Source of the DNA: Candidatus Omnitrophota bacterium
Lineage (GTDB): Bacteria; Omnitrophota; Gorgyraeia; Gygaellales; Profunditerraquicolaceae
Length of the DNA stretch: 64,000 bases
Assembly (NCBI GenBank): GCA_028717885.1
Contig: JAQUMX010000001.1
Coordinates: 42,409 to 106,408, forward strand
Direction: 5' to 3'
The notes under the pieces are model-generated. The model had not been told where the DNA came from. It searched no databases and was given only the letters and a program-made list of their open reading frames with translations. Shown one piece after another: positions 17,839-40,385 of this stretch. The first letter of the stretch is position 1. Every line of letters starts with the position of its first letter. Both the position numbers and the translations under genes were made by a program.

Positions 17839-18684
17839 TTATATCGGCATCAACAAAAAGGAAGTTTCTTTTAAGAATATTTTTCCGAAATTTTTCTTTA
17901 GATAGCGCGCAGGGAGGTTTTTAATAATACAACAGTATCGGTTGCGCAGGCCAAAAATAAGGTAATCTTTTTTCATCGGCGTATTATCTTTTCTGGTAGC
18001 GCCGCGTTCGTGATAAGCTACTGCGGAAGGGTTATAAACACATTTCCAGTTCCTTAAACACGCCCTCCAGGAAAGGTCCACATCTTCCACGTAATTCACG
18101 AAGTCCTCGTCAAAAAATTCCCGTCCGGATCTTATATCCTCCAGCATCGCTTTCCGGTATAAAGGAGCTGCCCCGCATGCGCCAAATACAAGCGCGCCTT
18201 CAGAATTATCGTATTGACCGCGGTCTTCTTCGCTCTGCCCCCGCGGATGCATGAAACAATGCCGCATGGTAATGCCGGTAGAATCCAGGATTTTGGTTTT
18301 GTTGCCGTTAGTCTGCCGGTAAAGCTTCCCGGAGACAATGCCGATTGATGAATCGTTTTTCATCATCTTTACCATCTCCCCCACAAAATCCGGTTCCAAA
18401 AATACGTCGAAATTAAGCGGCAAAATAAATTCGCCTTTGGCTAGATGAATGCCTAAGTTGTGGCTCTTGGAAAACCCTAAGTTTTCTTTATTTTTTACAA
18501 TCTTTACCTGAGGAAAATTTTTCGCGATGTATTCCAGAGAAGAATCCGTAGAACTGTTATCTACGACTATGAGTTCAATCGCAGGATAAAGCTGTTTCTT
18601 TATGGAATCCAGGCATTTCTCGATATAGCCCGATGAATTCCAATTTACGATGGTAATAGAAACTAACCCTTCAGCGCTTTTCAT
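17839..18684 (-). CDS. Family 2 glycosyltransferase
   Basis: VSITIVNWNSSGYIEKCLDSIKKQ...ELIVVDNSSTD; LNFDVFL. Confidence 0.7.
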   Translation of the reverse strand: MKSAEGLVSITIVNWNSSGYIEKCLDSIKKQLYPAIELIVVDNSSTDSSLEYIAKNFPQVKIVKNKENLGFSKSHNLGIHLAKGEFILPLNFDVFLEPDFVGEMVKMMKNDSSIGIVSGKLYRQTNGNKTKILDSTGITMRHCFMHPRGQSEEDRGQYDNSEGALVFGACGAAPLYRKAMLEDIRSGREFFDEDFVNYVEDVDLSWRACLRNWKCVYNPSAVAYHERGATRKDNTPMKKDYLIFGLRNRYCCIIKNLPARYLKKNFGKIFLKETSFLLMPI

Positions 18685-21671
18685 AACGGATCGTATAGTT
18701 TTGGGTCATCTAACGCTTTATCATATTTTTTTGCTCCGGGAAAAAGATGGCATCGTTGGCATTCATACGGCTTATCTTCCTGCTTCATTTTGCTCCTGAA
18801 CTTTTCGAACATTTCCCCGTTCCATACCTGTTCTGCATCTTGAGAATTTAAATCGCCGAGTACCCTTCCGGTAATACAACACGGTGCCACTGTCCCGTTA
18901 AAACGCACGAAAAACGTCTTCCATGGTTCAAGGCAAAAATCCTTTTCGCAGGCGCTTAACGCTTCGCTTTTCTTGCGGTCAGGCTCATCAAGAATAAATT
19001 TTTTTGCTACTGCCGAGAGCGATTCCGGGAACATTAAGGAAAAAACCATTCCTTTTTCTTTATATAACTGATCGCGCAATTTTTCTGTCTGGGCATAATA
19101 CTGATTGGCTAACTCCACTGTTTGTGGCAGGTTCGTTCTCTCTTTTTCCATCTCGGGAGTATGGGCAACAAGGTTGGTTATCGTAATTCCGCGCACATGG
19201 TGCGCATATGCCTTCTCTAGCAAGATAGGCAACTCCGCCAGGTTTGAGGCGTGCGCCACAAATTCGATGAAAATTACCGGTGGGGCAAGCTGTAAGTCAT
19301 CGCTGTTTTTTATCGGATTATATTTGGCTTTCATCTCATTCAATCGTGCGATATTCCCCCATAATTTTTCCCATCCGTCGGTTCCGTGGATCTTTTGATA
19401 AGTCTGCCTTGTCCCGGCGCTGCAGGAGAATGTAATCTCTGCCTGATTGTATTTTACCATAGCCTCGGCGATTCTCGCATTAAGCAATAACCCATTGGTA
19501 TTAAATGTCACTCTTGCTTTTTTCTTCGCGGCGATTTTTAAAAAACGGATAAAATCCGGATGCAGCAACGTTTCGCCGCGGCCAAAAAGCGCTAATTTAG
19601 TGTCCGGGGAGAATAAACGGGAAAGCCGCTTAAATACCTTCCTGGTCATAAACCCCTCGTCAGAAGCGGCTAATTTATAGTAACTACGCCCGCACATCCG
19701 GCATTGCAAATTACATTTCGTGCTGATTTCCGCATAAATTAAAATTGGCTTGCTGAAAAGAATAACCGGGAGGAATTTACATTCCGCTTCATTTACTTGG
19801 ATGTTCGTTCGCTGCTGAGCCACTCTCTTAACAAAACGCCTTTCGGCTAAGTTACGCATTAAAAGGAAAATCCTGTAAATCCTGGTGGAAGTAATTTTAT
19901 TTAACCGTTTGGAAATTGCGGTATATTCATTTTCCATACTTAAGAAACTTTCCCTTGCGCGGCCCAGGCTTCCCTCTAAGTCTGCTACCTTAGCCTGAAG
20001 ATTATCCCGCTCTCCGATAAACGCATTCAACTGATTATTCAAGTTGTTAATATGGAACTTAACCTGCTCTCTTTCCGCCTCGAGGTTATGGATATGGCCA
20101 TGAAGCGATTTACGCTCTTCGGAAAATGCCGCGACCTGCTTTTCCAGGTTATTAACATGCTCCTTGACGTTTTCTCGTTCTGATTCGAGGTTTCCGATAT
20201 GAAGTTTTATCTGTTTTCTTTCCGTTTCCAGGTTACCTATATGCAGTTTAACCTGCTCCCTTTCCGTTTCCAGGTTACGAATGTGGGTATTTAACGAGGT
20301 GTATTCTTCTAAAGATGCGGTAATTTGACTTTCCAGGTTACGCGCATGATTTTGCGCATTATCTCTTTGTGCCTGGAGGATAGTAATTTCCTCTTTAAGT
20401 TTTTCAATGTGCCTGGCTTCGGGGACAAGAAAAAGCTGCCCTTTCCTTTTAGCGCTCAAGCTATCCGGGGCAAGCTGCGGAGAAGCTACCCACGCTCTTA
20501 ACGCCTGAGTGGTTTTTTCAAAAGAATATTCCTCTATCACGAAATGTTTGGCTCGCGCTGCATACTGCTGCAATAATTTCGGCTGCGCAGCCAATTCCAG
20601 GATCATCTGCGCTAAAGCGCTCGGGTCTTCCTGTGTAAATGAGAATGCCATTTGATTGCGGCTTAAAGCCTGGGTCAATTCGCTGGGGGCAGTGGTTAAA
20701 ATTGGCAACCCTGCTTTCATCCAATCCAGCAGCCTGTGGCGGCTGCCTAAAACAACTTCATAACAATTCTTATCGATATTTATCGCGAGATTGCTCTCCA
20801 GGTAAATATTCGGTAAGTCATCTAAAGCAAGCCATCCGAGTAAAATATACCTGTTTTTGTGTGGAGAGGAATTTATTCTTTCGCTAAATTTCTTATAAGT
20901 AGTTTCATCCTGCCCGGGAATTACGCCACCCGTAGAAACAAATTTTATTTTCTTATTTTTGTTCATGGCAATTTCCAGCGCCGCAAACAACGTATCGGTA
21001 TCAGCCCAGGTATTATATCCGCCGGACCAGAGGATTACAAAATCATCATTTTGCACTAACCTTCCCCGGATAATATTTTTTACAAGCTTATGCTCCCCTT
21101 TTTCTATAGCGCAGGGCATTACATGGGCAAATTCATAACCCACTGTCTCCTTGTTAAGCCTGCCGGCATCCCCTAATTTTCCCATCAGGGCGAATTTTTG
21201 CGGCAAAGAATAACAGGAAAAAATATCCCCTCTTGCCAGAATATTCCTTTCCAAATCTAAAAAAAGGTAGAGATAATCATCATTATTTTCGGTGAATGAT
21301 TTCAATTGCGCCTCGGCAAGCAAATCTCCCCGGTCAAACCAGACCGGTTTTGCGGTGTTTAGGCCTATTACAGCTTTTGACTGCAGAAATGAGCTGATCG
21401 AAACAATACAATCGGGGCGAAAGCGGTCGTGAATTTCCTGAAGCGCCGCAGGAGTAGTAAACTGTTGTTGGTTCAGGGAAAAAACTGATAATCCATTGGC
21501 TTTTGGCTCTTTGACGGCAGAGTTAACGGTATTTAAACAAACCAGGCATACTTGATGCCCATCATCAATTAAAGGCTTTGCCATCTGCCAGGTCCTAATA
21601 CCGGGGCCGCTTAAGAAATTTTCGTTCTCTATTGGCAGCGGCCTTTCTCCGACAATCAAAACTTTACTCAT
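18681..21671 (-). CDS. Tripartite fusion protein: N-terminal GT-B (GT1/GT4-like) glycosyltransferase, central coiled coil with 14-residue repeats, C-terminal radical SAM + SPASM domain
   Basis: 996 aa. N-terminal region is glycosyltransferase-like. Residues ~400-590 are heptad-rich (HIGNLETERKQIKL repeats). C-terminus has CNLQCRMCGRS (CxxxCxxC) and Cys-rich SPASM-like motifs (CQRCHLFPG; CLEPW...APCCITG). Confidence 0.65.
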   Translation of the reverse strand: MSKVLIVGERPLPIENENFLSGPGIRTWQMAKPLIDDGHQVCLVCLNTVNSAVKEPKANGLSVFSLNQQQFTTPAALQEIHDRFRPDCIVSISSFLQSKAVIGLNTAKPVWFDRGDLLAEAQLKSFTENNDDYLYLFLDLERNILARGDIFSCYSLPQKFALMGKLGDAGRLNKETVGYEFAHVMPCAIEKGEHKLVKNIIRGRLVQNDDFVILWSGGYNTWADTDTLFAALEIAMNKNKKIKFVSTGGVIPGQDETTYKKFSERINSSPHKNRYILLGWLALDDLPNIYLESNLAINIDKNCYEVVLGSRHRLLDWMKAGLPILTTAPSELTQALSRNQMAFSFTQEDPSALAQMILELAAQPKLLQQYAARAKHFVIEEYSFEKTTQALRAWVASPQLAPDSLSAKRKGQLFLVPEARHIEKLKEEITILQAQRDNAQNHARNLESQITASLEEYTSLNTHIRNLETEREQVKLHIGNLETERKQIKLHIGNLESERENVKEHVNNLEKQVAAFSEERKSLHGHIHNLEAEREQVKFHINNLNNQLNAFIGERDNLQAKVADLEGSLGRARESFLSMENEYTAISKRLNKITSTRIYRIFLLMRNLAERRFVKRVAQQRTNIQVNEAECKFLPVILFSKPILIYAEISTKCNLQCRMCGRSYYKLAASDEGFMTRKVFKRLSRLFSPDTKLALFGRGETLLHPDFIRFLKIAAKKKARVTFNTNGLLLNARIAEAMVKYNQAEITFSCSAGTRQTYQKIHGTDGWEKLWGNIARLNEMKAKYNPIKNSDDLQLAPPVIFIEFVAHASNLAELPILLEKAYAHHVRGITITNLVAHTPEMEKERTNLPQTVELANQYYAQTEKLRDQLYKEKGMVFSLMFPESLSAVAKKFILDEPDRKKSEALSACEKDFCLEPWKTFFVRFNGTVAPCCITGRVLGDLNSQDAEQVWNGEMFEKFRSKMKQEDKPYECQRCHLFPGAKKYDKALDDPKLYDPL
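19990..20300. repeat. Tandem 42-nt repeats encoding the 14-aa coiled-coil repeat
   Basis: Units such as tttccgtttccaggttacctatatgcagtttaacctgctccc recur head-to-tail with small variations. Confidence 0.6.
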
Positions 21672-28583: not shown

Positions 28584-29621
28584 TCAACAGATTCGCGGCA
28601 ATGGTTCGCTGGTAAGCATATCTACAACACGCCGGGTATTAAGTAAGGTGCGCAAAACGACCTTTCCCGCATGCCCATTTACTACGGAACCGATAACCCT
28701 GGCATTTTTAGCTAAAGCGTGTTTGCGCAAAGAGCTTAAAACCTTATTAGCTGCGCTTTGGCGCACAATCAGAATCGCAGCCCCTTCATTAGCAACATAT
28801 AAAGGGTCAATACCCAGGAGTTCGCAAGCAGCCCTTACTTGAGGGCTAAGCGGAATATTTTTTTCTTCGATCTCGATTCCCAGGTGGATAGCTTGCGTTA
28901 CTTCATTCAAAGTAGTGGCGATCCCGCCCCGGGTAGGATCACGCATGAATTTTACGGCATTGGTCTTCTTTAATAAAGGCAGCAATAAATGATTTAAAGC
29001 TGCGCAGTCGCTTTTGATACGAAAATCGAACTCCAGAGAGCGCCTGCGGGTTAATACTGCTAAACCGTGTTGGCCGATATTGCCGGTAATAATAATTTTA
29101 TCGCCCGGCGAAAGGCTTTTTAAAGATAATTTTTCTTTGCTGATCAATTTGCCGATACCCGCGGTATTAATGAAAAGTTGGTCGCAAGCGCCTCTTTCTA
29201 CCACTTTCAGGTCGCCGGTTGCGACCACTACACCGGCCTCTTTAGCGGCCCGAGAGATAGAATCAGTGATTCTTTCTAACAGGGAAAGTTCAAGCCCCTC
29301 TTCGATAATCATCGCCAAAGAAAGGTATTGCGGCTGTGCACCCATCATCACCAGGTCATTTACCGTCCCGCACACCGCAAGTTTACCAATGTCCCCTCCC
29401 GGGAAAAGTAACGGGGAGACCACAAAGGAATCCGTAGTAAAGGCTAATTTTTGCCGATAATCCAGGTAGGCGCTATCACCCAGCTCAGAGAGCACGGGAT
29501 TGTTTAGCCTGCTTAAAAAAACTTCCTTAATCAATCGGTGCGTGAGTAAACCGCCGCTACCGTGCCCTAAAAGGACTTGCTTTTTTTCCATGTTTTTTAA
29601 ACCTCTACTCCCAACGAGCAT
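28584..29621 (-). CDS. hypE: HypE-like AIR-synthase-family protein (hydrogenase maturation carbamoyl dehydratase homologue)
   Basis: 345 aa, PurM-like fold. N-terminal LLGHGSGG. C-terminus ends ...PRIC, the diagnostic HypE terminal cysteine motif. Confidence 0.8.
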   Translation of the reverse strand: MLVGSRGLKNMEKKQVLLGHGSGGLLTHRLIKEVFLSRLNNPVLSELGDSAYLDYRQKLAFTTDSFVVSPLLFPGGDIGKLAVCGTVNDLVMMGAQPQYLSLAMIIEEGLELSLLERITDSISRAAKEAGVVVATGDLKVVERGACDQLFINTAGIGKLISKEKLSLKSLSPGDKIIITGNIGQHGLAVLTRRRSLEFDFRIKSDCAALNHLLLPLLKKTNAVKFMRDPTRGGIATTLNEVTQAIHLGIEIEEKNIPLSPQVRAACELLGIDPLYVANEGAAILIVRQSAANKVLSSLRKHALAKNARVIGSVVNGHAGKVVLRTLLNTRRVVDMLTSEPLPRIC

Positions 29622-32389: not shown

Positions 32390-33118
32390 TTAGAAGCTAT
32401 AGTTTATACTTCCTGCGAAGGCATCGCTGTCAAACGCCTGGCCTTCCAGGTTAAGCCAAAATTTTTTACCTAAGGGAATATTGATCCCGTAAATAAAGCC
32501 GATGTCTTTGGTAAAATCCGACATGCGGCGCTTCTTCTCTCCGTTTACAGTGTGGATATAATCCACTCTTGACCAGCGTGTCCCCAGGTATGGGCTAAAT
32601 TCCTTAATATCATAAGAAACCAACAAAGAGGTCTGCCAGTCGTCAAGGATCGCCTGATTCTTGATAGTGCCTAATTCTACGCTTTTTGGATGCACGCTAA
32701 TATGCTGGAAACCAAAAACCATCCTCCAATTATTTTTATCGAGGAATTTTAGCCGCAAACCATACCCCCCGGCAAAACTCGAAGGGTACACCACTTCGTC
32801 GCTGGTATAAGGATGCTGCTTGATGTTGCCTCCGCCAGCCTTTAGATCGATAGAAAACCAGTCAAAAATTCCGTAGGACATCCCGTAAAACTGCTGCTGG
32901 TTCCTCATCGTGCCATGGCTATCTTCCAGGTATCTTTTAAACAGGCTATAGGATTCGAAATTAGCGAAAAATTTATTCCGCTTCGGCAGCTTCGTTCCGT
33001 AACAAGGAGCAGCTAAAGAAAACTCCGAAACACAAAATATTAAGCTCAAAATAAAAACCAAAATCCGCAACTTTACCCTAAAGGGCATTCTTCGCAACGC
33101 GGCCTCCTTTTTGAACAA
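32390..33118 (-). CDS. Small outer-membrane beta-barrel-type protein
   Basis: Signal peptide; alternating hydrophobic strands; terminal ...GSINYSF. Confidence 0.35.
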   Translation of the reverse strand: MFKKEAALRRMPFRVKLRILVFILSLIFCVSEFSLAAPCYGTKLPKRNKFFANFESYSLFKRYLEDSHGTMRNQQQFYGMSYGIFDWFSIDLKAGGGNIKQHPYTSDEVVYPSSFAGGYGLRLKFLDKNNWRMVFGFQHISVHPKSVELGTIKNQAILDDWQTSLLVSYDIKEFSPYLGTRWSRVDYIHTVNGEKKRRMSDFTKDIGFIYGINIPLGKKFWLNLEGQAFDSDAFAGSINYSF

Positions 33119-33708: not shown

Positions 33709-35655
33709 TTAAGCTTCCAACGGATTATAATTATAGTAGGCAAAAATCGTATAGGCAGTGCCGGAAACACACCCCGTAGAATTACCCTTGGGCGTCATCC
33801 ATCCGTGCCCGGTATCGACAAAACTCTGCGTGGCAAAAGGCAAACAGCTCTGCCCGGATGAATGGGCGCTGGAGATCGTCATTTTTTCCAGAGTTGCCAG
33901 ATTATCATCTGCTTTCATTTCATAAAGATGGCCCTTGGCCTTAAGCCCTTTTTTATAATAGTATTCCGACATAATTTTATAGGCGACGACCATCTGCGCG
34001 GTCCACTCCGAAGAAATCACTCCTCCTCGCGCTAAATTTTGCTCCGGGGCAAAATCAAAACCTCTTAATTTAACGCTGTAGCCTTCGGGCCGGCAAAAGA
34101 CTACTTCAGCGCTGCAAAATTCTTGCGCTAACTCAATAATCCTCTCCGGGTTAATCCCTAATTCTTCCAGTTTTTCCGGGCCAATGGCGGCAATAGACCA
34201 GGCATAGGTATCGGTGGCGATAATGGCACCGGATTTTTCTTTTTTGATCGCTGCATCGGATTGTTCATACACATGTTTTAACAACCATTTCAATACGCTG
34301 TCTGCTGCCGTACGGTATTCCTGCTTGCCGGTAATTTTATAGAGCATATTGAAAAACGCGTAAGCATCAAGATTATGGTCCGCGGCGAACCATTCGATAT
34401 TCCTGCCTCCACGGATGCCTCCGTCGCTATCCTGGAGGCCGATCACTGCGCGGGCAATCTCTTCAGCTAATCCCAAATAAGTTTTATCCTGGCTTTTTTT
34501 GGTATATTGCAATATACCAATCCCCAGCCAAAGATTTGACCCGCTTTGCACGGATAATTCTGCCGGAGAGCCGCTTTCCGCATAGTAAGCGTTCATAAAC
34601 ATGCCGTTCACTCTTTTGGCCTTTTGCGCAAAAAAATCCAGGATCATTTGCGCCCTTTCGAAATCCGCAAAATTAGTATAGGCCTGGAGCGCCAAAGATT
34701 GATCGTAAATAAACGCCCAATTCTTAATATTGCTTTCGCCTTCAAAACTGATCACCAGCCCCGTAGAGCCATCCTGGCGTTTCTTGAGCCACTGGTACAT
34801 CTTTTCCAGGTTGGCTTTTTCCAGCTGCGCCTTTTTCTTATCCAGGTGCAACAATTCCTCTGCAACACCGTTCTCTTTTTTCTGCACTGCGATTAATTCT
34901 GCCTGCAACCTTTCTTTATCGGCGGATAATTTGTCGACGAGGGAAAAAATTTCCGCTTTTCTTTGTTCGAATTTTTTCTTATCCGCTGTTTTAGGAACTC
35001 CTAAATATTTCTTCTCCTCTTCCAACAAGACTTGCAGCCTGGAATCGGAATTCTGGATTTCCAGTTCCAACTGCGCGCGCTGGCGTGCCAACTCCTTTAC
35101 TTTTTGCTTGGCAATGCTCGATTCCTGGACAATACCTACCAATTGATGCACCAAAGCGCGGTTACCTTTAATCAATTTTATATTCAACCAGGTCCCCATG
35201 ACAAAAACCGATGCCAGGAACGCAATTAAACCCAGGGAAACAGGAAGAAAAAGTTTTTTTGCCCTGGCGTAGCGTATGAAGAGCATGTTTTTCTTTTCAT
35301 CCATCTCTTCGAAATGCACACCTACCAGGAATTTCTCTATGCCCTGCGAGGGTTCCTCCATCCAGGCAATCCTGCCTACTGCGGGAATCTCTTTATCCAG
35401 AAAAGGAAGTTCGATTTTTAAAGATAAATCCGCGCGCTGCTGGCGTAATACGACCACCCACTCCGCGCAAAGGTTATTTATTTCCAGGCATAACCCATCT
35501 TGGCTGACGTTGCGCGTAAACCCTTGCAGCCAGTCGGAAAGAAAAATATCCCAACGGTCCCTGCCGACTAAGGCAAATTGTACGGGAAATACCGTATCGA
35601 GCCTGATGTATTTTCTGCGGTCCGCAAAGACAGATTGTTTTTTACGCCAGATCAT
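33709..35655 (-). CDS. PilZ-domain protein fused to a TM segment, coiled coil and a C-terminal (alpha/alpha)6 glycosidase-like domain
   Basis: N-terminal RKYIRLD...NVSQDGLCLE (PilZ RxxxR/DxSxxG motifs); TM helix LPVSLGLIAFLASVFVMGTW; heptad-rich segment; C-terminal ~330 aa with a six-hairpin-glycosidase-like pattern. Confidence 0.55.
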   Translation of the reverse strand: MIWRKKQSVFADRRKYIRLDTVFPVQFALVGRDRWDIFLSDWLQGFTRNVSQDGLCLEINNLCAEWVVVLRQQRADLSLKIELPFLDKEIPAVGRIAWMEEPSQGIEKFLVGVHFEEMDEKKNMLFIRYARAKKLFLPVSLGLIAFLASVFVMGTWLNIKLIKGNRALVHQLVGIVQESSIAKQKVKELARQRAQLELEIQNSDSRLQVLLEEEKKYLGVPKTADKKKFEQRKAEIFSLVDKLSADKERLQAELIAVQKKENGVAEELLHLDKKKAQLEKANLEKMYQWLKKRQDGSTGLVISFEGESNIKNWAFIYDQSLALQAYTNFADFERAQMILDFFAQKAKRVNGMFMNAYYAESGSPAELSVQSGSNLWLGIGILQYTKKSQDKTYLGLAEEIARAVIGLQDSDGGIRGGRNIEWFAADHNLDAYAFFNMLYKITGKQEYRTAADSVLKWLLKHVYEQSDAAIKKEKSGAIIATDTYAWSIAAIGPEKLEELGINPERIIELAQEFCSAEVVFCRPEGYSVKLRGFDFAPEQNLARGGVISSEWTAQMVVAYKIMSEYYYKKGLKAKGHLYEMKADDNLATLEKMTISSAHSSGQSCLPFATQSFVDTGHGWMTPKGNSTGCVSGTAYTIFAYYNYNPLEA

Positions 35656-38030
35656 TTGATTTTTTCTAAAATTGCCCTTTGTTTGATTTTTTTCGCTAAA
35701 TTTTCGAAGAAAGCCTTAAAATCCTGGTAATCCGCTTCTTTTACGTATTCCTGTTTTAAAGCGACTCTTTGGCTGACTAAAAGTTTATTCCCTTGCCGGC
35801 TGTAGGCGATATTAAACCTTATCCAGGGGCTATCTTCATTGATCGTTTCCGGTATATATTTTATAGCAAAATTGCCCGGAATTGCAATCTCGAAATCCGA
35901 TTCTTTGGTTTCCGGAGAACCGAAGTCGATCGGGTATTTACGTTTATCCCTGGCAACCAAAGAAGTGTCTAAACTGGCCAGTGCAGGCAAAATTCTTAAG
36001 GGCCCCGCGACGATCAAGTATTCCGGCCCGTTAAAAGAATAGTCCAATTCTACGGGAGTATTCAAGTCATCCAGGTTCTTAATCTGATAATCGCCGAGTT
36101 TTGCTCCGATGGAAATATCCTGGATTTTTTCTTTTAGCGCCTCGGCAATAAGCTCCGGCGGAGTATAAAGCAGCCAGTACCGTTGCGCCTGGTCGTAAAT
36201 ACCAAATGTCGAATTCGTCTTTTGCGCAAAAATGCTCTCATCGGGCTTCACCGAAATTTTCAGGCTCTGCTTTACCAGGTTATGCTCTGCAGCAAACATG
36301 GGGGTAGGCTCTATAGAATACCCTTCCGGCTTAAAAATAAGCACCTTGCGGTTCTGGTCTCCTTGGGGCAGGTCCCCAAAAGAACAGGTCTGGGCTGTTG
36401 AATCCATAAATACGGTTTTTCCGCCCAAAGCAATCGCTGCGATAGCATGATTAAATAACATCGAAGGAAAATCATCGTTCAAGTTATAATATTCCTTGGT
36501 CGAAATCAAGAGCGGCCATGCCGAGAACCCGGCTTCCCTTAACATAGTTACCAAAAGAATGGCTTTATCTTTACAATCGCCGTATTTATTTTTAAAAGTA
36601 TCTACGGCGAAATGCGGCTCATATCCGGCCTGGCCATATTCTACGGCCACATAACGGATCTCCTGGCAGCAAAAATTATAGATCTGCCTGATTTTTCCTT
36701 CGGGGTCTTTTTGGTTCTTAATCAATTCCCGGACCTTGGATTTGATAGCGTCATCCGCCCGGATTTTATCTTTTGCCAGCCCCCACCACCAATCGAAAAT
36801 TTCCTGCCAACTGCCAAAAGTCGAAAGCATTATCGTAGGATTGATTTCCACTTCCGGAGGCATATTTGCTTCCGGCAGGATTTGCGGGATTTTTTTAAAT
36901 TGCCAATGGTAAACTACCCTGTTGCTTTCTTCGCTTACCTTGGGGCTTAAATCTGCGCCAAAATCATTGAATTTTTCGTTGAGGATCTTTCTTTGCAGCT
37001 TCAAAGTTTTTGGCAATTCCAAGTTAAAATCCGCAAGTAATATCGGGTCGGCCGTTTGCACGGGAAAACCTAAGACAATATCTTTTTTATTAATCAGCTG
37101 GTTACGGATGATTTTTACCTTATACTCGATCACTGCGCCTTCGGTTACTTCCGGAAAAGAAATAATATAAACGTGGGCATTACTGTAAAGCGGGAAATTC
37201 AGGTATTTGGAAACATCGCGGATATGCCGGGAGCCGACCTCAACCACAGTCCCGTCCGGCTTAATAGTGCGGGCATAATCCAATTCTATCCTTTCGAAGG
37301 TGGAATCATAGTCGATCTGGCTTTCGGCGTAGTTTTGTTTGCCTCTTTCATTAAGGATCTTGACCAAATAATGCAGCTCCGAAATTTCTTTTGCGTCCTG
37401 CGTAACCTTGATTTTTTCATCGGAGAGCAGGATAATCCCTCCTGCCTGAGGGTATTCTTTCTCCGAAGGCGCTTGTTCTATGATGCGGCTGACTTCAGGG
37501 CTGACTTCTTTGATATTCGCCAAACTCGATTGCATTTCGATAGAATCAACGCGCCCCTGTGCCAATAGCTTAAATTTTCCCGCAGCGATTTTTTGATAAG
37601 CCTTTAATGCCGTATCAAATAAGTTGAGTTTTTCCGCAGTCAAGCCATAGTAGTAGCTGCTTTCATCATCGAGAAAGCCGTCTTTACTAAAAAGGTCGAG
37701 CGCTTCGCTAAAATTCGACGCGTAATAATAGGCGATTGCCAGGTATTTTTTTGCTGCCTCAGACTGCGAATGTTTTAATTCCAGGATCGCGTTGTTATAA
37801 TCACCGTGCGCAAAATACAATTTCCCTAACTCGAAATAGATTCGGTCCAAGTCTTTTCCTTGGGCGATTAAACTCTTATAGGCAGAAATTGCCTGCTGGT
37901 AATACTGCTGGGAGATCTTGGTATATTCTTGCGCTTGACTATCGTCTTTAATTTGCTTACAACCCAAAAATAACAAACTCAAAGACAAAAATAAAACTAA
38001 CTTTAACTTAACGGTATCGATAATACGCAT
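35652..38030 (-). CDS. Transglutaminase-like cysteine-protease-superfamily protein with N-terminal TPR repeats (DUF3857/transglutaminase/DUF3858 layout)
   Basis: Core YGDCKDKAILLVTMLREAGF (catalytic Cys). TPR-like N-terminus after a lipoprotein-type signal (LFLGC). Confidence 0.7.
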   Translation of the reverse strand: MRIIDTVKLKLVLFLSLSLLFLGCKQIKDDSQAQEYTKISQQYYQQAISAYKSLIAQGKDLDRIYFELGKLYFAHGDYNNAILELKHSQSEAAKKYLAIAYYYASNFSEALDLFSKDGFLDDESSYYYGLTAEKLNLFDTALKAYQKIAAGKFKLLAQGRVDSIEMQSSLANIKEVSPEVSRIIEQAPSEKEYPQAGGIILLSDEKIKVTQDAKEISELHYLVKILNERGKQNYAESQIDYDSTFERIELDYARTIKPDGTVVEVGSRHIRDVSKYLNFPLYSNAHVYIISFPEVTEGAVIEYKVKIIRNQLINKKDIVLGFPVQTADPILLADFNLELPKTLKLQRKILNEKFNDFGADLSPKVSEESNRVVYHWQFKKIPQILPEANMPPEVEINPTIMLSTFGSWQEIFDWWWGLAKDKIRADDAIKSKVRELIKNQKDPEGKIRQIYNFCCQEIRYVAVEYGQAGYEPHFAVDTFKNKYGDCKDKAILLVTMLREAGFSAWPLLISTKEYYNLNDDFPSMLFNHAIAAIALGGKTVFMDSTAQTCSFGDLPQGDQNRKVLIFKPEGYSIEPTPMFAAEHNLVKQSLKISVKPDESIFAQKTNSTFGIYDQAQRYWLLYTPPELIAEALKEKIQDISIGAKLGDYQIKNLDDLNTPVELDYSFNGPEYLIVAGPLRILPALASLDTSLVARDKRKYPIDFGSPETKESDFEIAIPGNFAIKYIPETINEDSPWIRFNIAYSRQGNKLLVSQRVALKQEYVKEADYQDFKAFFENLAKKIKQRAILEKIK

Positions 38031-39096
38031 TGCAAGCTCCTTCTCGAGAAACCATACAAGGCCCGACCGGCTGCTCCGGCCGACAGGCGTTTTTGAATAA
38101 CGGGCAATCTAACGGAGAAGCTAATCCTCTTAAGATATCGCTGCATTTACACTTCGTAAGGCGTAAAGCGTTTGGCGTAATGCGCCTGATCTTAAAAATT
38201 TTTTGCGCGTCAAAGTCCGTAAATTCTTTAGCCAAATTTAACCCGCTATCGGGGATTCTTCCCAATGAACGCCAAATGCTGTCGCTTTGCACAAAGGCTT
38301 TACGCATGATTTTCTGCGCTTGAATGTTCCCCTGGGCGGTCACCACACGCCGGTATTGATTTTCTACCCGGGGTTTATTTTCAACTATTTGGCGTAACAA
38401 TAGATACAATCCTTCTAAAATATCCAAAGGCTCAAAACCGGCAATACAGCAGGCGGCCTTAAATTTTTTTGGGATGAAGGCATATGGCCTTGTGCCGATA
38501 ATCGCACTTACATGCCCCGGGCAAAGAAAACCATTAAGTTTAAGCCTTTTATCCTTAAGCAGATATTCCATAGCAGGAGGAATAAGCTTTAAGGAGGAAA
38601 GGAAAAAAAGGTTCTTTATTTTTTCTTTTCGCGCCTGCAAAATCGTAGCGGCAATTGTCGGAGCAGTAGTTTCAAAGCCTACTGCCAAAAAAATTATCCT
38701 TTTCCCGGGGTTCTTTTTTGCCAGGTTGATAGTTTCCAGTGGCGAATAAACTATTTCTACCCGGGCAGAATTTGCCCGTTCCTGCTCCAGGCTGGATTTA
38801 CTTCCGGGGATACGCAACATATCGCCGAAAGTAGCAATAATAGCTTGTTTTTCCCTGGCCAGAAAAATCGCATTATCAATGTATTCTACCGGGCTAACGC
38901 AGACCGGGCATCCCGGCCCGGAAATAAGCCTTAGGCCTTTCGGCAGCAATTTATCCAAACCGAACCTGCAGAAGTTCTGAGTATGCGTACCGCAGACCTC
39001 CATAAGATTTATTCGGCCTGCGGGCATAATCCGCCGGATTTGGGCTGCTATTCTCTTTGCCAATCTTAAATTACGGAATTCATCAACGTATTTCAT
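38008..39096 (-). CDS. hypD: Hydrogenase maturation factor HypD homologue
   Basis: MKYVDEFR...MEVCGTHT (CGxH) and GPGCPVC motifs; 362 aa. Confidence 0.85.
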   Translation of the reverse strand: MKYVDEFRNLRLAKRIAAQIRRIMPAGRINLMEVCGTHTQNFCRFGLDKLLPKGLRLISGPGCPVCVSPVEYIDNAIFLAREKQAIIATFGDMLRIPGSKSSLEQERANSARVEIVYSPLETINLAKKNPGKRIIFLAVGFETTAPTIAATILQARKEKIKNLFFLSSLKLIPPAMEYLLKDKRLKLNGFLCPGHVSAIIGTRPYAFIPKKFKAACCIAGFEPLDILEGLYLLLRQIVENKPRVENQYRRVVTAQGNIQAQKIMRKAFVQSDSIWRSLGRIPDSGLNLAKEFTDFDAQKIFKIRRITPNALRLTKCKCSDILRGLASPLDCPLFKNACRPEQPVGPCMVSREGACNAYYRYR

Positions 39097-39293: not shown

Positions 39294-40385
39294 TTATTCC
39301 CTCGAATGGGCAGCTACTGCCACCTGGCCTAAGGATATGGAAACGTCGCTGCTCGATAAGCTCTGGTGGGTTATTGCTTTGAACTTAAGCTTACATAATA
39401 ACTCCAAAGTTAAGCCAAGTAAAAGCTTATTTTGAAAAACACCCCCGGAGAGGGCTACCTGATCAATCTCGCTTTCTTTGCGTAATTTTAGGCAGGTTTT
39501 TGCGATCATTTGCGCTATTGTGCAGTGAAACCGGAAGGCAATTTCATCTTTTGGTTTACGCTTCTCTAAATCTTCCAGGATTTGCCTGAAAATAGCTGTG
39601 GGGTCAATGATATATTGCCCTTGTTTTTTTTGAATCGTAAATTTATACTCTGCTGCCTTACCGGCATAGCAAGAAGCGGCCCTTTCTAGTTCAATCGGCA
39701 ATTCTGCTTCTTCTGCGACCTGATATTTTTTTAAAATCAGGCATCCTGCCGCATCAAAAAGCCTGCCCATGCTGCTTGCTGAGGGCGTATTTAGCCTTTG
39801 CTGCATGAGTTTTCTTAAGATACGGCATTGTTTTTGGTACTGTGCAGGCAAAACTGCGCAATTATCCCAAGCACAGACTAACCTCCAGGGCTCTAAAACA
39901 GCTTTTTCTCCCCCTAATAGCGGGATCTCTTTCAAATGCGCCTTTCTCTGATAATTCCCGTAATTACAAATCAGGAATTCCGAGCCCCAGATCGAATTAT
40001 CGCTGCCTAACCCCGTACCATCAAAAGCTACCCCGATAATTTTACGGTTAGTTAAGCCATTTTCCGCCATACAAGCGGCAATATGTGCGTGATGGTGCTG
40101 CACCGCAAAAAAACTATAACTCCCGCGGCCCAGGCTTAAGGCGAATTTACTGGATTGATAATCCGGATGCAAATCATAAGCAATAATTTTTGGTTTCTGG
40201 CGCAAAAAATACCTTGCCTCTTTTTCAAAAACTGTCAAATCATCCGGGTCGCTTAAATCATTGTGCGCTGTAGCAAGAAAAGCGGCCCTGCCCCGGGCAA
40301 AACAAAGGGTATTTTTAGTTTGCGCCCCAAAACCAAGCACTGCTTTATCCGCTGCAAATGGCAGAGGTATTTTTTTTAGTTTCAT
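39294..40385 (-). CDS. HypF-like carbamoyltransferase comprising only the C-terminal Kae1/ASKHA domain (no acylphosphatase, Zn-finger or YrdC domains)
   Basis: 363 aa. VLGFGAQTKNTLCFARG... and the HypF metal-site motif VQHHHAHIAACMAE. The start overlaps the upstream gene's stop, leaving no room for the N-terminal domains. Confidence 0.7.
   Translation of the reverse strand: MKLKKIPLPFAADKAVLGFGAQTKNTLCFARGRAAFLATAHNDLSDPDDLTVFEKEARYFLRQKPKIIAYDLHPDYQSSKFALSLGRGSYSFFAVQHHHAHIAACMAENGLTNRKIIGVAFDGTGLGSDNSIWGSEFLICNYGNYQRKAHLKEIPLLGGEKAVLEPWRLVCAWDNCAVLPAQYQKQCRILRKLMQQRLNTPSASSMGRLFDAAGCLILKKYQVAEEAELPIELERAASCYAGKAAEYKFTIQKKQGQYIIDPTAIFRQILEDLEKRKPKDEIAFRFHCTIAQMIAKTCLKLRKESEIDQVALSGGVFQNKLLLGLTLELLCKLKFKAITHQSLSSSDVSISLGQVAVAAHSRE

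Follow-up and report, generated by a model that had tools for sequence, protein, structure and literature searches.

Can one protein carry a second-messenger signal from the cytoplasm to a carbohydrate-active domain on the other side of the inner membrane? The question is raised by a gene in a 64,000-nucleotide stretch of DNA, the whole of which is called the window here, from a Candidatus Omnitrophota bacterium (assembly GCA_028717885.1, contig JAQUMX010000001.1, positions 42,409 to 106,408 of the forward strand). The gene occupies positions 33709–35655 of the window on the minus strand, as do all the features of its product given below, and encodes a protein of 648 aa from an ATG start codon. 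A first-pass annotation, made from the sequence, had read it as a PilZ domain joined through a transmembrane (TM) helix and a coiled coil to a glycosidase-like (α/α)6 domain, and all four parts were found in that order. We propose, tentatively and at somewhat less than even confidence, that the product is a single-pass inner-membrane protein which couples a predicted cytoplasmic receptor for cyclic di-GMP (c-di-GMP) to a predicted periplasmic carbohydrate-active domain.

Existing annotation says little about such a role. An identical protein (100%) from a metagenome-assembled genome is held at NCBI under the sole name 'PilZ domain-containing protein [Candidatus Omnitrophica bacterium]'. A search of the 648-aa protein against NCBIfam gave nothing meaningful, and the full protein, used as a single query against the PDB sequences, gave zero matches. 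More than 120 full-length homologues at 53–59% identity were found, and relatives occur in 406 GTDB species genomes. Among the best 80 of these 406, nearly all are labelled Omnitrophota or Omnitrophica, the exceptions being 13 'uncultured Planctomycetales', one 'Margulisiibacteriota' and one 'bacterium'.

From the PilZ domain to the periplasm

Judged by its sequence, the N-terminal domain is a canonical PilZ domain with both ligand-binding motifs. Residues 12–129 (35269–35622), predicted to lie in the cytoplasm, match PF07238 with 33.6 bits against a gathering cut-off of 22.5 (E=5.3e-8), and PilZ was matched by Pfam in 52 of 55 homologues. The RxxxR motif reads R14-K-Y-I-R18 (35602–35616) and has R13 just before it. 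The second motif, described earlier as DxSxxG, is intact as the N variant of (D/N)xSxxG, namely N49-V-S51-Q-D-G54 (35494–35511). R14 and R18 are found in 54 of 54 homologues, Asn or Asp at position 49 in 54 of 55, and G54 in 55 of 55. When the family profile was compared with the PDB, the two motifs of the PilZ domain fell opposite those of the flagellar brake MotI/YpfA (5vx6). Galperin and Chou indicated that PilZ domains in fusion proteins invariably retain c-di-GMP binding (10.1101/814665).

The course of the chain beyond the PilZ domain was followed in an AlphaFold2 (AF2) model of the full-length protein, built from a 55-sequence alignment (mean predicted local distance difference test score (pLDDT) 82, predicted template modelling score (pTM) 0.66). 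In this model, β strands at 24–118 are followed by a helix that begins at residue 120 and continues unbroken to residue 218, comprising the C-terminal helix of the PilZ domain, the TM helix and a periplasmic helix. The single TM helix, at about residues 135–157 (35185–35253), coincides with the one segment alone in which the 19-residue Kyte-Doolittle mean exceeds 1.6 (averages starting at residues 132–144 and covering residues ~132–162), with a peak of 2.44 at 135–153. Its flanks carry charges of +6 on the N-terminal side and +3 on the C-terminal side.

A low-confidence turn (219–225) and a second helix (226–292) come next in the model, and residues 160–292, about 130 in all (34780–35178), are predicted to form a periplasmic heptad coiled coil. 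Leu, Ile, Val or Met fills 59% of the a/d heptad positions of the first helix vs 21% of the positions elsewhere, and 50% vs 13% in the second helix. Moreover, the length of the coiled coil is a multiple of seven residues in 85 of 160 homologues, where about 14% would be expected by chance, with peaks at 84, 91, 98 and 105. The two ends of the segment, next to the membrane and next to the barrel, are strongly conserved, the juxtamembrane part to the same degree as the barrel; the variation in length lies between them. In the AF2 monomer the coiled coil is an antiparallel hairpin, conserved at its base and variable at its tip, and the barrel would then lie close to the inner membrane on its outer side. 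The heptad-quantised changes in length agree equally well with a parallel oligomer extended over about 200 Å. The seven-residue quantisation was considered as a test between hairpin and extended forms, and was dropped because an extra a/d layer of an antiparallel hairpin likewise costs 3+4 residues.

The charge bias around the TM helix, together with the leaders of related proteins, points to a topology in which the PilZ domain is inside and the C-terminal domain is periplasmic. Stand-alone relatives of the barrel (P0186, P0191, P0223, P0234, P0237 and others) begin with signal peptides or lipoprotein-like leaders, which argues that the barrel works outside the cytoplasm. If the barrel is periplasmic, then control by c-di-GMP must act inside-out across the membrane. 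The c-di-GMP gating suggested by the first-pass annotation is consistent with the PilZ motifs that are present, but it overlooked this topology and hence the transmembrane signalling that a periplasmic barrel would need.

Fold, family and conserved residues of the barrel

The C-terminal domain has the fold that had been claimed for it and is slightly larger than the ~330 aa then given, since it spans about 355 aa (residues 293–648, 33712–34779). Most of its ten-residue blocks have a mean pLDDT of 84–98 in the full-length model, with lower values in a few loops, and the barrel helices stand at residues 316, 332, 371, 394, 425, 445, 481, 503, 549, 572 and 630, to which the end of the coiled coil is added. 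A Foldseek search of the PDB with the full-length model gave 253 matches at E≤1e-3, and the top 50 are all (α/α)6 sugar-active enzymes, in line with the predicted glycosidase- or epimerase-like homology. The best match is the methylmannose-polysaccharide hydrolase MmpH (7qsj; E=6e-10, template modelling score (TM-score) 0.62–0.68). Other top matches are cellobiose, N-acetylglucosamine (GlcNAc) and glucose 2-epimerases, YihS, mannanases of glycoside hydrolase (GH) family 76, the GH8-like amylase 3ren, the GH105 protein YteR and a β-1,2-glucanase. The TM-scores of the barrel against solved enzymes are about 0.58–0.68, or 0.58–0.66 when taken at the level of the domain. A model of the domain alone gave consistent matches, with TM-scores of 0.58–0.64 on either normalisation, and also retrieved the exopolysaccharide-trimming GH8 enzymes PssZ (6r2m) and BcsZ/CMCax (1wzz) at 0.51–0.59. 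The agreement of the two models confirms the (α/α)6 fold, and the closest structural relatives of the modelled domain are all sugar hydrolases, epimerases or isomerases.

As far as sequence comparison goes, the barrel belongs to no known family, and GH76 is the nearest. The GH76 model (PF03663) matched 23 of the 55 homologues, with a best E of 2.2e-7, and scored 13.8 bits in the window protein, below its cut-off of 25.9; Prenyltrans, GlcNAc 2-epimerase and GH88 each gave a single weak Pfam match among the 55. A broad profile, made of the window protein and 22 short, mostly stand-alone relatives, matched GH76 structures exclusively when compared with the PDB at E<0.05 (E=2e-4 to 0.04), and narrow family profiles gave just weak coiled-coil, LanKC and GH76 matches. 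In two independent alignments the GH76 catalytic pair lies opposite Gly372-Pro373 of the family, which is Gly-Ser (S373) in the window protein: 'Y-D-E-N-G-W' of BT2949 and 'D-D-N-I-W' of BT_3782 align to the family sequence 'S-G372-P373-N374-x-W376'. Since G372 is 98% conserved, the GH76 catalytic machinery appears to be absent throughout the family.

Three further assignments were considered and rejected. N-acylglucosamine 2-epimerase or cellobiose 2-epimerase (PF07221) gave a weak match in 1 of 55 homologues, and His427 and His617 are found in only 26 and 21 of 53 domain copies. GH8 of the BcsZ/PssZ type gave no Pfam or PDB sequence match, the likeness being at the level of fold only. In the case of a LanC-like cyclase, the LanKC matches are weak (E=0.02–0.04), C514, C604 and H617 are not widely conserved, and no LanC structure is among the top Foldseek matches in the PDB. 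Within the PilZ subfamily His427, His617, Cys514 and Cys604 never vary, but they are not conserved beyond it, which disfavours both epimerase-type His catalysis and a LanC-type Zn site. The expectation that the domain would fall into a known glycoside hydrolase or epimerase family was therefore not borne out, with GH76 below threshold and its catalytic pair replaced by Gly-Pro, and GH8 and the epimerases set aside.

The barrel is found far beyond the PilZ proteins. A search of 1.84 billion cluster representatives with the C-terminal profile gave 1264 proteins at E≤1e-3 and 610 at E≤1e-10, with cluster names that read just 'hypothetical protein'. Among the best 150 of the 1264, 51 are PilZ/coiled-coil proteins, about 40 are shorter than ~520 aa with the domain near the N-terminus (many of them fragments), 18 exceed 1500 aa, reaching 7886 aa and up to five copies of the domain, and the remainder have other architectures. 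The giant proteins that bear the domain include several of 2000–7900 aa (P0190, P0213, P0215, P0241 and P0253; locus L089). No annotation could be borrowed from this wider family, because nine of ten relatives without a PilZ domain gave no Pfam match at all, and the neighbours of five stand-alone and giant relatives (P0186, P0196, P0182, P0271 and P0190) included none that was informative. West-Roberts et al. described a GH76-like fold in giant Omnitrophota proteins (10.1101/2023.11.21.568195), and this fold and the present barrel are probably one domain family.

Conservation was assessed in 53 domain copies, each less than 40% identical to the window protein. The most constant residues are G372, E426 and D482 (98% each), followed by Y317 and E550 (94%), D318 (92%), D476 (89%), N374 (85%), W376, D534 and Y607 (83% each) and D430 (81%). 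In the AF2 model, D318, N374, E426, D482 and E550 are among the opening residues of alternate helices (H316, H371, H425, H481 and H549) and would therefore converge on one mouth of the barrel. This mouth is the place of the active site in (α/α)6 enzymes. MmpH has its acid (D47/D50) near the first helix pair and its base (E262) about three-quarters along the chain (PMC9883506). By analogy, D318 and E550 occupy relative positions that appear similar to those of the MmpH acid and base, the correspondence being an unaligned one.

Mechanism, gene neighbourhood and competing explanations

The mechanism that we have in mind would start with the PilZ domain, which would face the cytoplasm and bind c-di-GMP, probably as a dimer as in Alg44. 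A c-di-GMP-induced change in the C-terminal helices of the PilZ domain may then be relayed through the TM helix and the coiled coil, inside-out, in a manner like that of LapD or FtsEX-EnvC, and would change the periplasmic barrel in its activity, its exposure or its position. This domain would bind, and most likely cleave or modify, an envelope glycan. As the gene is conserved throughout the phylum in a block of housekeeping genes, a core envelope glycan is a more likely substrate than the product of the glycan locus that is described below. A putative acidic pocket formed by D318, E426, D430, D476, D482, D534 and E550, which is not the GH76 Asp-Asp pair, could serve this putative activity.

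Several observations weigh against this mechanism. Membership of GH76, the nearest family, was rejected, as the score of the window protein is below the cut-off and the Asp-Asp/Asp-Glu pair is absent. On the side of the ligand, position 51 of the second PilZ motif is Ser in 25 of the 55 homologues, including the window protein, and Gly in 28, and neither the window nor ~1 Mb of related loci showed a GGDEF or EAL gene. The AF2 model is that of a monomer and so is blind to the oligomeric state and to the choice between a hairpin and an extended coiled coil. No conserved neighbours that point to a substrate were found in related loci. Finally, none of the 55 homologues diverges more than the window protein, which deviates at 38 of the columns that are conserved at 90% or more (median 7) and carries E426D, D476G and Y607F where the wider family, too, is conserved. 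Its catalytic competence is uncertain because these substitutions fall at three widely conserved positions, and the sequence suggests that the window ortholog may be attenuated or altered in activity relative to typical orthologs.

Other features of this divergence can be described alongside. P373S and, in the loop preceding D482, R472K, G473E and G475S are further changes of the window protein, which keeps the fold and D318, N374, W376, D430, D482, D534 and E550. Orthologs nearer the consensus, such as P0028 and P0093, have E426, D476 and Y607. The GQGESC loop (region of residues 472–478) has a two-residue deletion. The closest relative, P0003, has 26 deviations, and together the two proteins make up a fast-evolving branch. 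The GGDEF strings in the sequence examined were chance matches within an M20 peptidase and not cyclases.

The genes of the window are nearly all on the minus strand and tightly packed. Directly upstream of the PilZ gene is a lipoprotein gene (35652–38030, minus strand; 792 aa) that is frequently found at this place in related loci and whose stop codon overlaps the start of the PilZ gene (ATGA). Its product has an LFLGC lipobox, TPR, DUF3857, a transglutaminase-like core and DUF3858 according to Pfam, with the core motifs GDCKD, NHAI and MDST, and its nearest solved structure is the 'putative protease' 3kd4 (E=1e-3). Downstream follow, in order, an HhH-GPD DNA glycosylase, an outer membrane protein (OMP)-like protein, an M20 peptidase, PAC2, HAD and HypE. 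The block of HypF_C, HypD, (lipoprotein), PilZ protein, HhH-GPD, (OMP-like), M20, PAC2, HAD and HypE is conserved in related loci, the lipoprotein being directly upstream in 50 of 64 and the DNA glycosylase directly downstream in 66 of 73. The gene thus sits in a conserved core-genome block and not in an exopolysaccharide operon. Conserved gene order accounts for most of this synteny, since the DNA glycosylase, which is unrelated, keeps its place even more regularly than the lipoprotein does; the link with the lipoprotein is suggestive, yet no stronger than that with an obviously unrelated gene.

A glycan locus does lie in the same window, at 18.7–28.5 kb on the same strand as the PilZ gene. 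It encodes a GT1 glycosyltransferase (GT), a WecA-like GT4, an amine-oxidase-like flavoprotein, a Wzm/Wzt exporter, a GT2 and a GT1/radical-SAM fusion. This last gene (18681–21671, minus strand), with which the locus ends, has an unusual architecture, in that its 996-aa product joins GT1, a long coiled coil and a radical-SAM/SPASM domain. The statement of the first-pass annotation that the PilZ gene is next to the glycan locus was too strong, given that 5 kb and six unrelated genes separate the two and that a GT homologue is found within 6 kb downstream in just 13 of 54 related loci.

Further observations concern the block and the remainder of the window. Hydrogenase-maturation genes are split around the block (28584–29621, 38008–39096 and 39294–40385, minus strand): HypF is represented by its C-terminal Kae1-like half alone (363 aa), together with HypD, and a HypE-like AIRS protein is encoded ~10 kb away. 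This order of split hypF, HypD and HypE is conserved in many Omnitrophota loci. The product of the OMP-like gene (32390–33118, minus strand) is 242 aa long, bears a signal peptide and matches the Chlamydia major outer membrane protein family weakly and in part. The gene, which shares 46 nt with the HhH-GPD gene, occurs in some related loci only. Between 52000 and 58000 the AT skew is positive, up to +0.27 at 54–56 kb, with an unchanged GC skew; elsewhere in the window it is mostly negative or near zero, apart from a smaller positive stretch at 24–28 kb.

Against this background, other explanations of the protein can be weighed. We consider it unlikely that the barrel is not a catalyst but a glycan-binding or scaffold module, and that the protein, depending on c-di-GMP, anchors an envelope machine or serves it as a co-factor, in parallel with Alg44, whose periplasmic part is structural rather than enzymatic. 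The replacement of the GH76 dyad by Gly-Pro or Gly-Ser and the tolerance of E426D, D476G and Y607F in the window protein would fit such a role. So would the juxtamembrane coiled coil, whose barrel-like conservation suggests protein-protein contacts, and the repetition of the domain up to five times in giant proteins, a frequent habit of binding modules. However, 5–7 acidic residues at the barrel mouth are 81–98% conserved at less than 40% identity, a conservation more typical of an active site than of a lectin site, and the structural neighbours are all enzymes. The neighbouring glycan locus suggests another possibility, to which we give little credence, namely that the protein is a c-di-GMP-gated hydrolase that turns over the exopolysaccharide made there. 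The WecA-like GT4, GT1, GT2 and Wzm/Wzt exporter are 5 kb downstream on the same strand, and the barrel is similar at the level of fold to the exopolysaccharide-trimming GH8 enzymes PssZ and BcsZ; but, beyond the intervening genes and the rarity of nearby GT genes already described, the protein is conserved throughout the phylum irrespective of neighbouring glycan genes.

The remaining explanations concern the two ends of the proposed relay. LapG is a transglutaminase-like cysteine protease under inside-out control by c-di-GMP, and the upstream lipoprotein of the window could conceivably be a LapG-like partner. The periplasmic part of the PilZ protein would then bind and control this lipoprotein, as a putative cysteine protease, with the barrel as a docking surface. 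We regard such a switch as quite improbable: the lipoprotein has motifs of the Cys/His/Asp type and is, with its ATGA overlap, the direct neighbour in most related loci, but it is missing in 14 of the 64, it belongs to PF01841/DUF3857 and not to the family of LapG, and the greater constancy of the DNA glycosylase attributes the synteny mainly to gene order. At the cytoplasmic end, it seems very improbable that the PilZ domain no longer binds c-di-GMP and serves in interaction or anchoring, which would leave a constitutively membrane-tethered periplasmic enzyme. Certain PilZ domains do lack ligand binding (10.1101/814665), the Ser of the motif is replaced by Gly in about half of the homologues as given above, and a c-di-GMP cyclase was seen neither in the window nor in the ~1 Mb of related loci. 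On the other hand, hardly any homologue departs from the two Arg of RxxxR or from the N/D and G of the second motif, position 51 of the window protein is the canonical Ser, c-di-GMP binding is reported to be retained when PilZ domains are fused (10.1101/814665), and Omnitrophota are reported to have both GGDEF domains and small pilZ genes (10.1101/2023.11.21.568195).

Relation to known systems and implications

The overall architecture is closest to that of Alg44, with a different periplasmic domain. Alg44 is the alginate co-polymerase of Pseudomonas aeruginosa, through which internal c-di-GMP controls a glycan process that spans the periplasm. Both proteins have an N-terminal canonical PilZ domain in the cytoplasm, one TM helix and a periplasmic C-terminal part with long paired helices. 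In Alg44 the PilZ domain is fused with a HlyD-family secretion protein and its C-terminal helices dimerise (10.1101/814665). The periplasmic domain of Alg44 is of the HlyD/membrane-fusion-protein type, whereas that of the present protein is an (α/α)6 barrel, and Pfam and NCBIfam gave no HlyD match in it. Neither an Alg8-like synthase nor a partner GT2 synthase nor an alginate-type operon was found adjoining the gene, the neighbours of which are the lipoprotein and the DNA glycosylase.

Among enzymes, the GH76 α-1,6-mannanases BT2949 (4v1r), BT_3782 (4mu9) and GH76A (6shm) are nearest by sequence and share the fold and a helix start with N-x-W followed by D-x-x-Y-L. They differ in having the catalytic Asp-Asp/Asp-Glu before N-x-W, which the present family lacks, and the identity is 11–14%. 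MmpH, the best fold match, is likewise a compact (α/α)6 barrel with an acidic central cavity. It comes, however, from actinobacteria, is not reported to have a PilZ or membrane part (PMC9883506), and shares 13% identity with the present barrel, with no match at the sequence level.

A c-di-GMP receptor and an extracytoplasmic (α/α)6 glycanase also occur within one pathway in the case of the BcsA PilZ domain with BcsZ, and of Listeria Pss with PssZ. There the receptor and the hydrolase are separate and the hydrolase itself is unregulated, whereas here the two are on one polypeptide that is not of GH8 and not encoded in a synthase operon. LapD-LapG and FtsEX-EnvC resemble the proposed mechanism in that a cytoplasmic signal (c-di-GMP or ATP, respectively) is passed through the inner membrane and controls hydrolysis in the periplasm. 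EnvC, moreover, uses a long coiled coil as the relay, and LapG is a transglutaminase-like protease, a core that the lipoprotein next to our gene also has, in another Pfam family. LapD, in contrast, senses c-di-GMP via a degenerate EAL domain, with HAMP and a PAS-like periplasmic domain, FtsEX is an ABC system, and in neither is the regulated domain on one chain with the sensor.

We found no description in the literature of an architecture composed of PilZ, TM helix, coiled coil and (α/α)6 barrel. Taken together, the models point to a previously undescribed, phylum-wide PilZ fusion effector, implying a one-protein, inside-out relay to periplasmic glycan processing. To our knowledge, c-di-GMP controls polysaccharides through synthases (BcsA, Alg44/Alg8, PelD) or through transcription, and the periplasmic glycanases of the c-di-GMP systems that we know of are separate proteins without direct regulation. 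If the proposed role is true, this protein would provide a route from a second messenger to periplasmic glycan processing within one polypeptide. Research on c-di-GMP would also gain a simple model of transmembrane relay, from PilZ helix to TM helix to coiled coil.

The implications extend to the barrel family and to the phylum. More than 1200 cluster representatives carry the barrel, which has no Pfam model, and identification of a substrate would annotate all of them at once. We consider it a speculative and rather unlikely idea that Omnitrophota use c-di-GMP to switch, from inside, a periplasmic glycan-cleaving module that belongs to the core of their envelope, while the same module without the switch is borne, in up to five copies, by secreted and giant proteins of a type thought to attack the cell walls of prey. 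On this idea the protein would be the first PilZ-regulated periplasmic glycanase and would give a way to learn how these nanobacteria, most of them uncultured, remodel the cell wall of their own cells or of a host. The PilZ family itself is found at 50–60% identity across the recovered genomes of Omnitrophota, a phylum that is little understood and in which some members may be predators or depend on a host.

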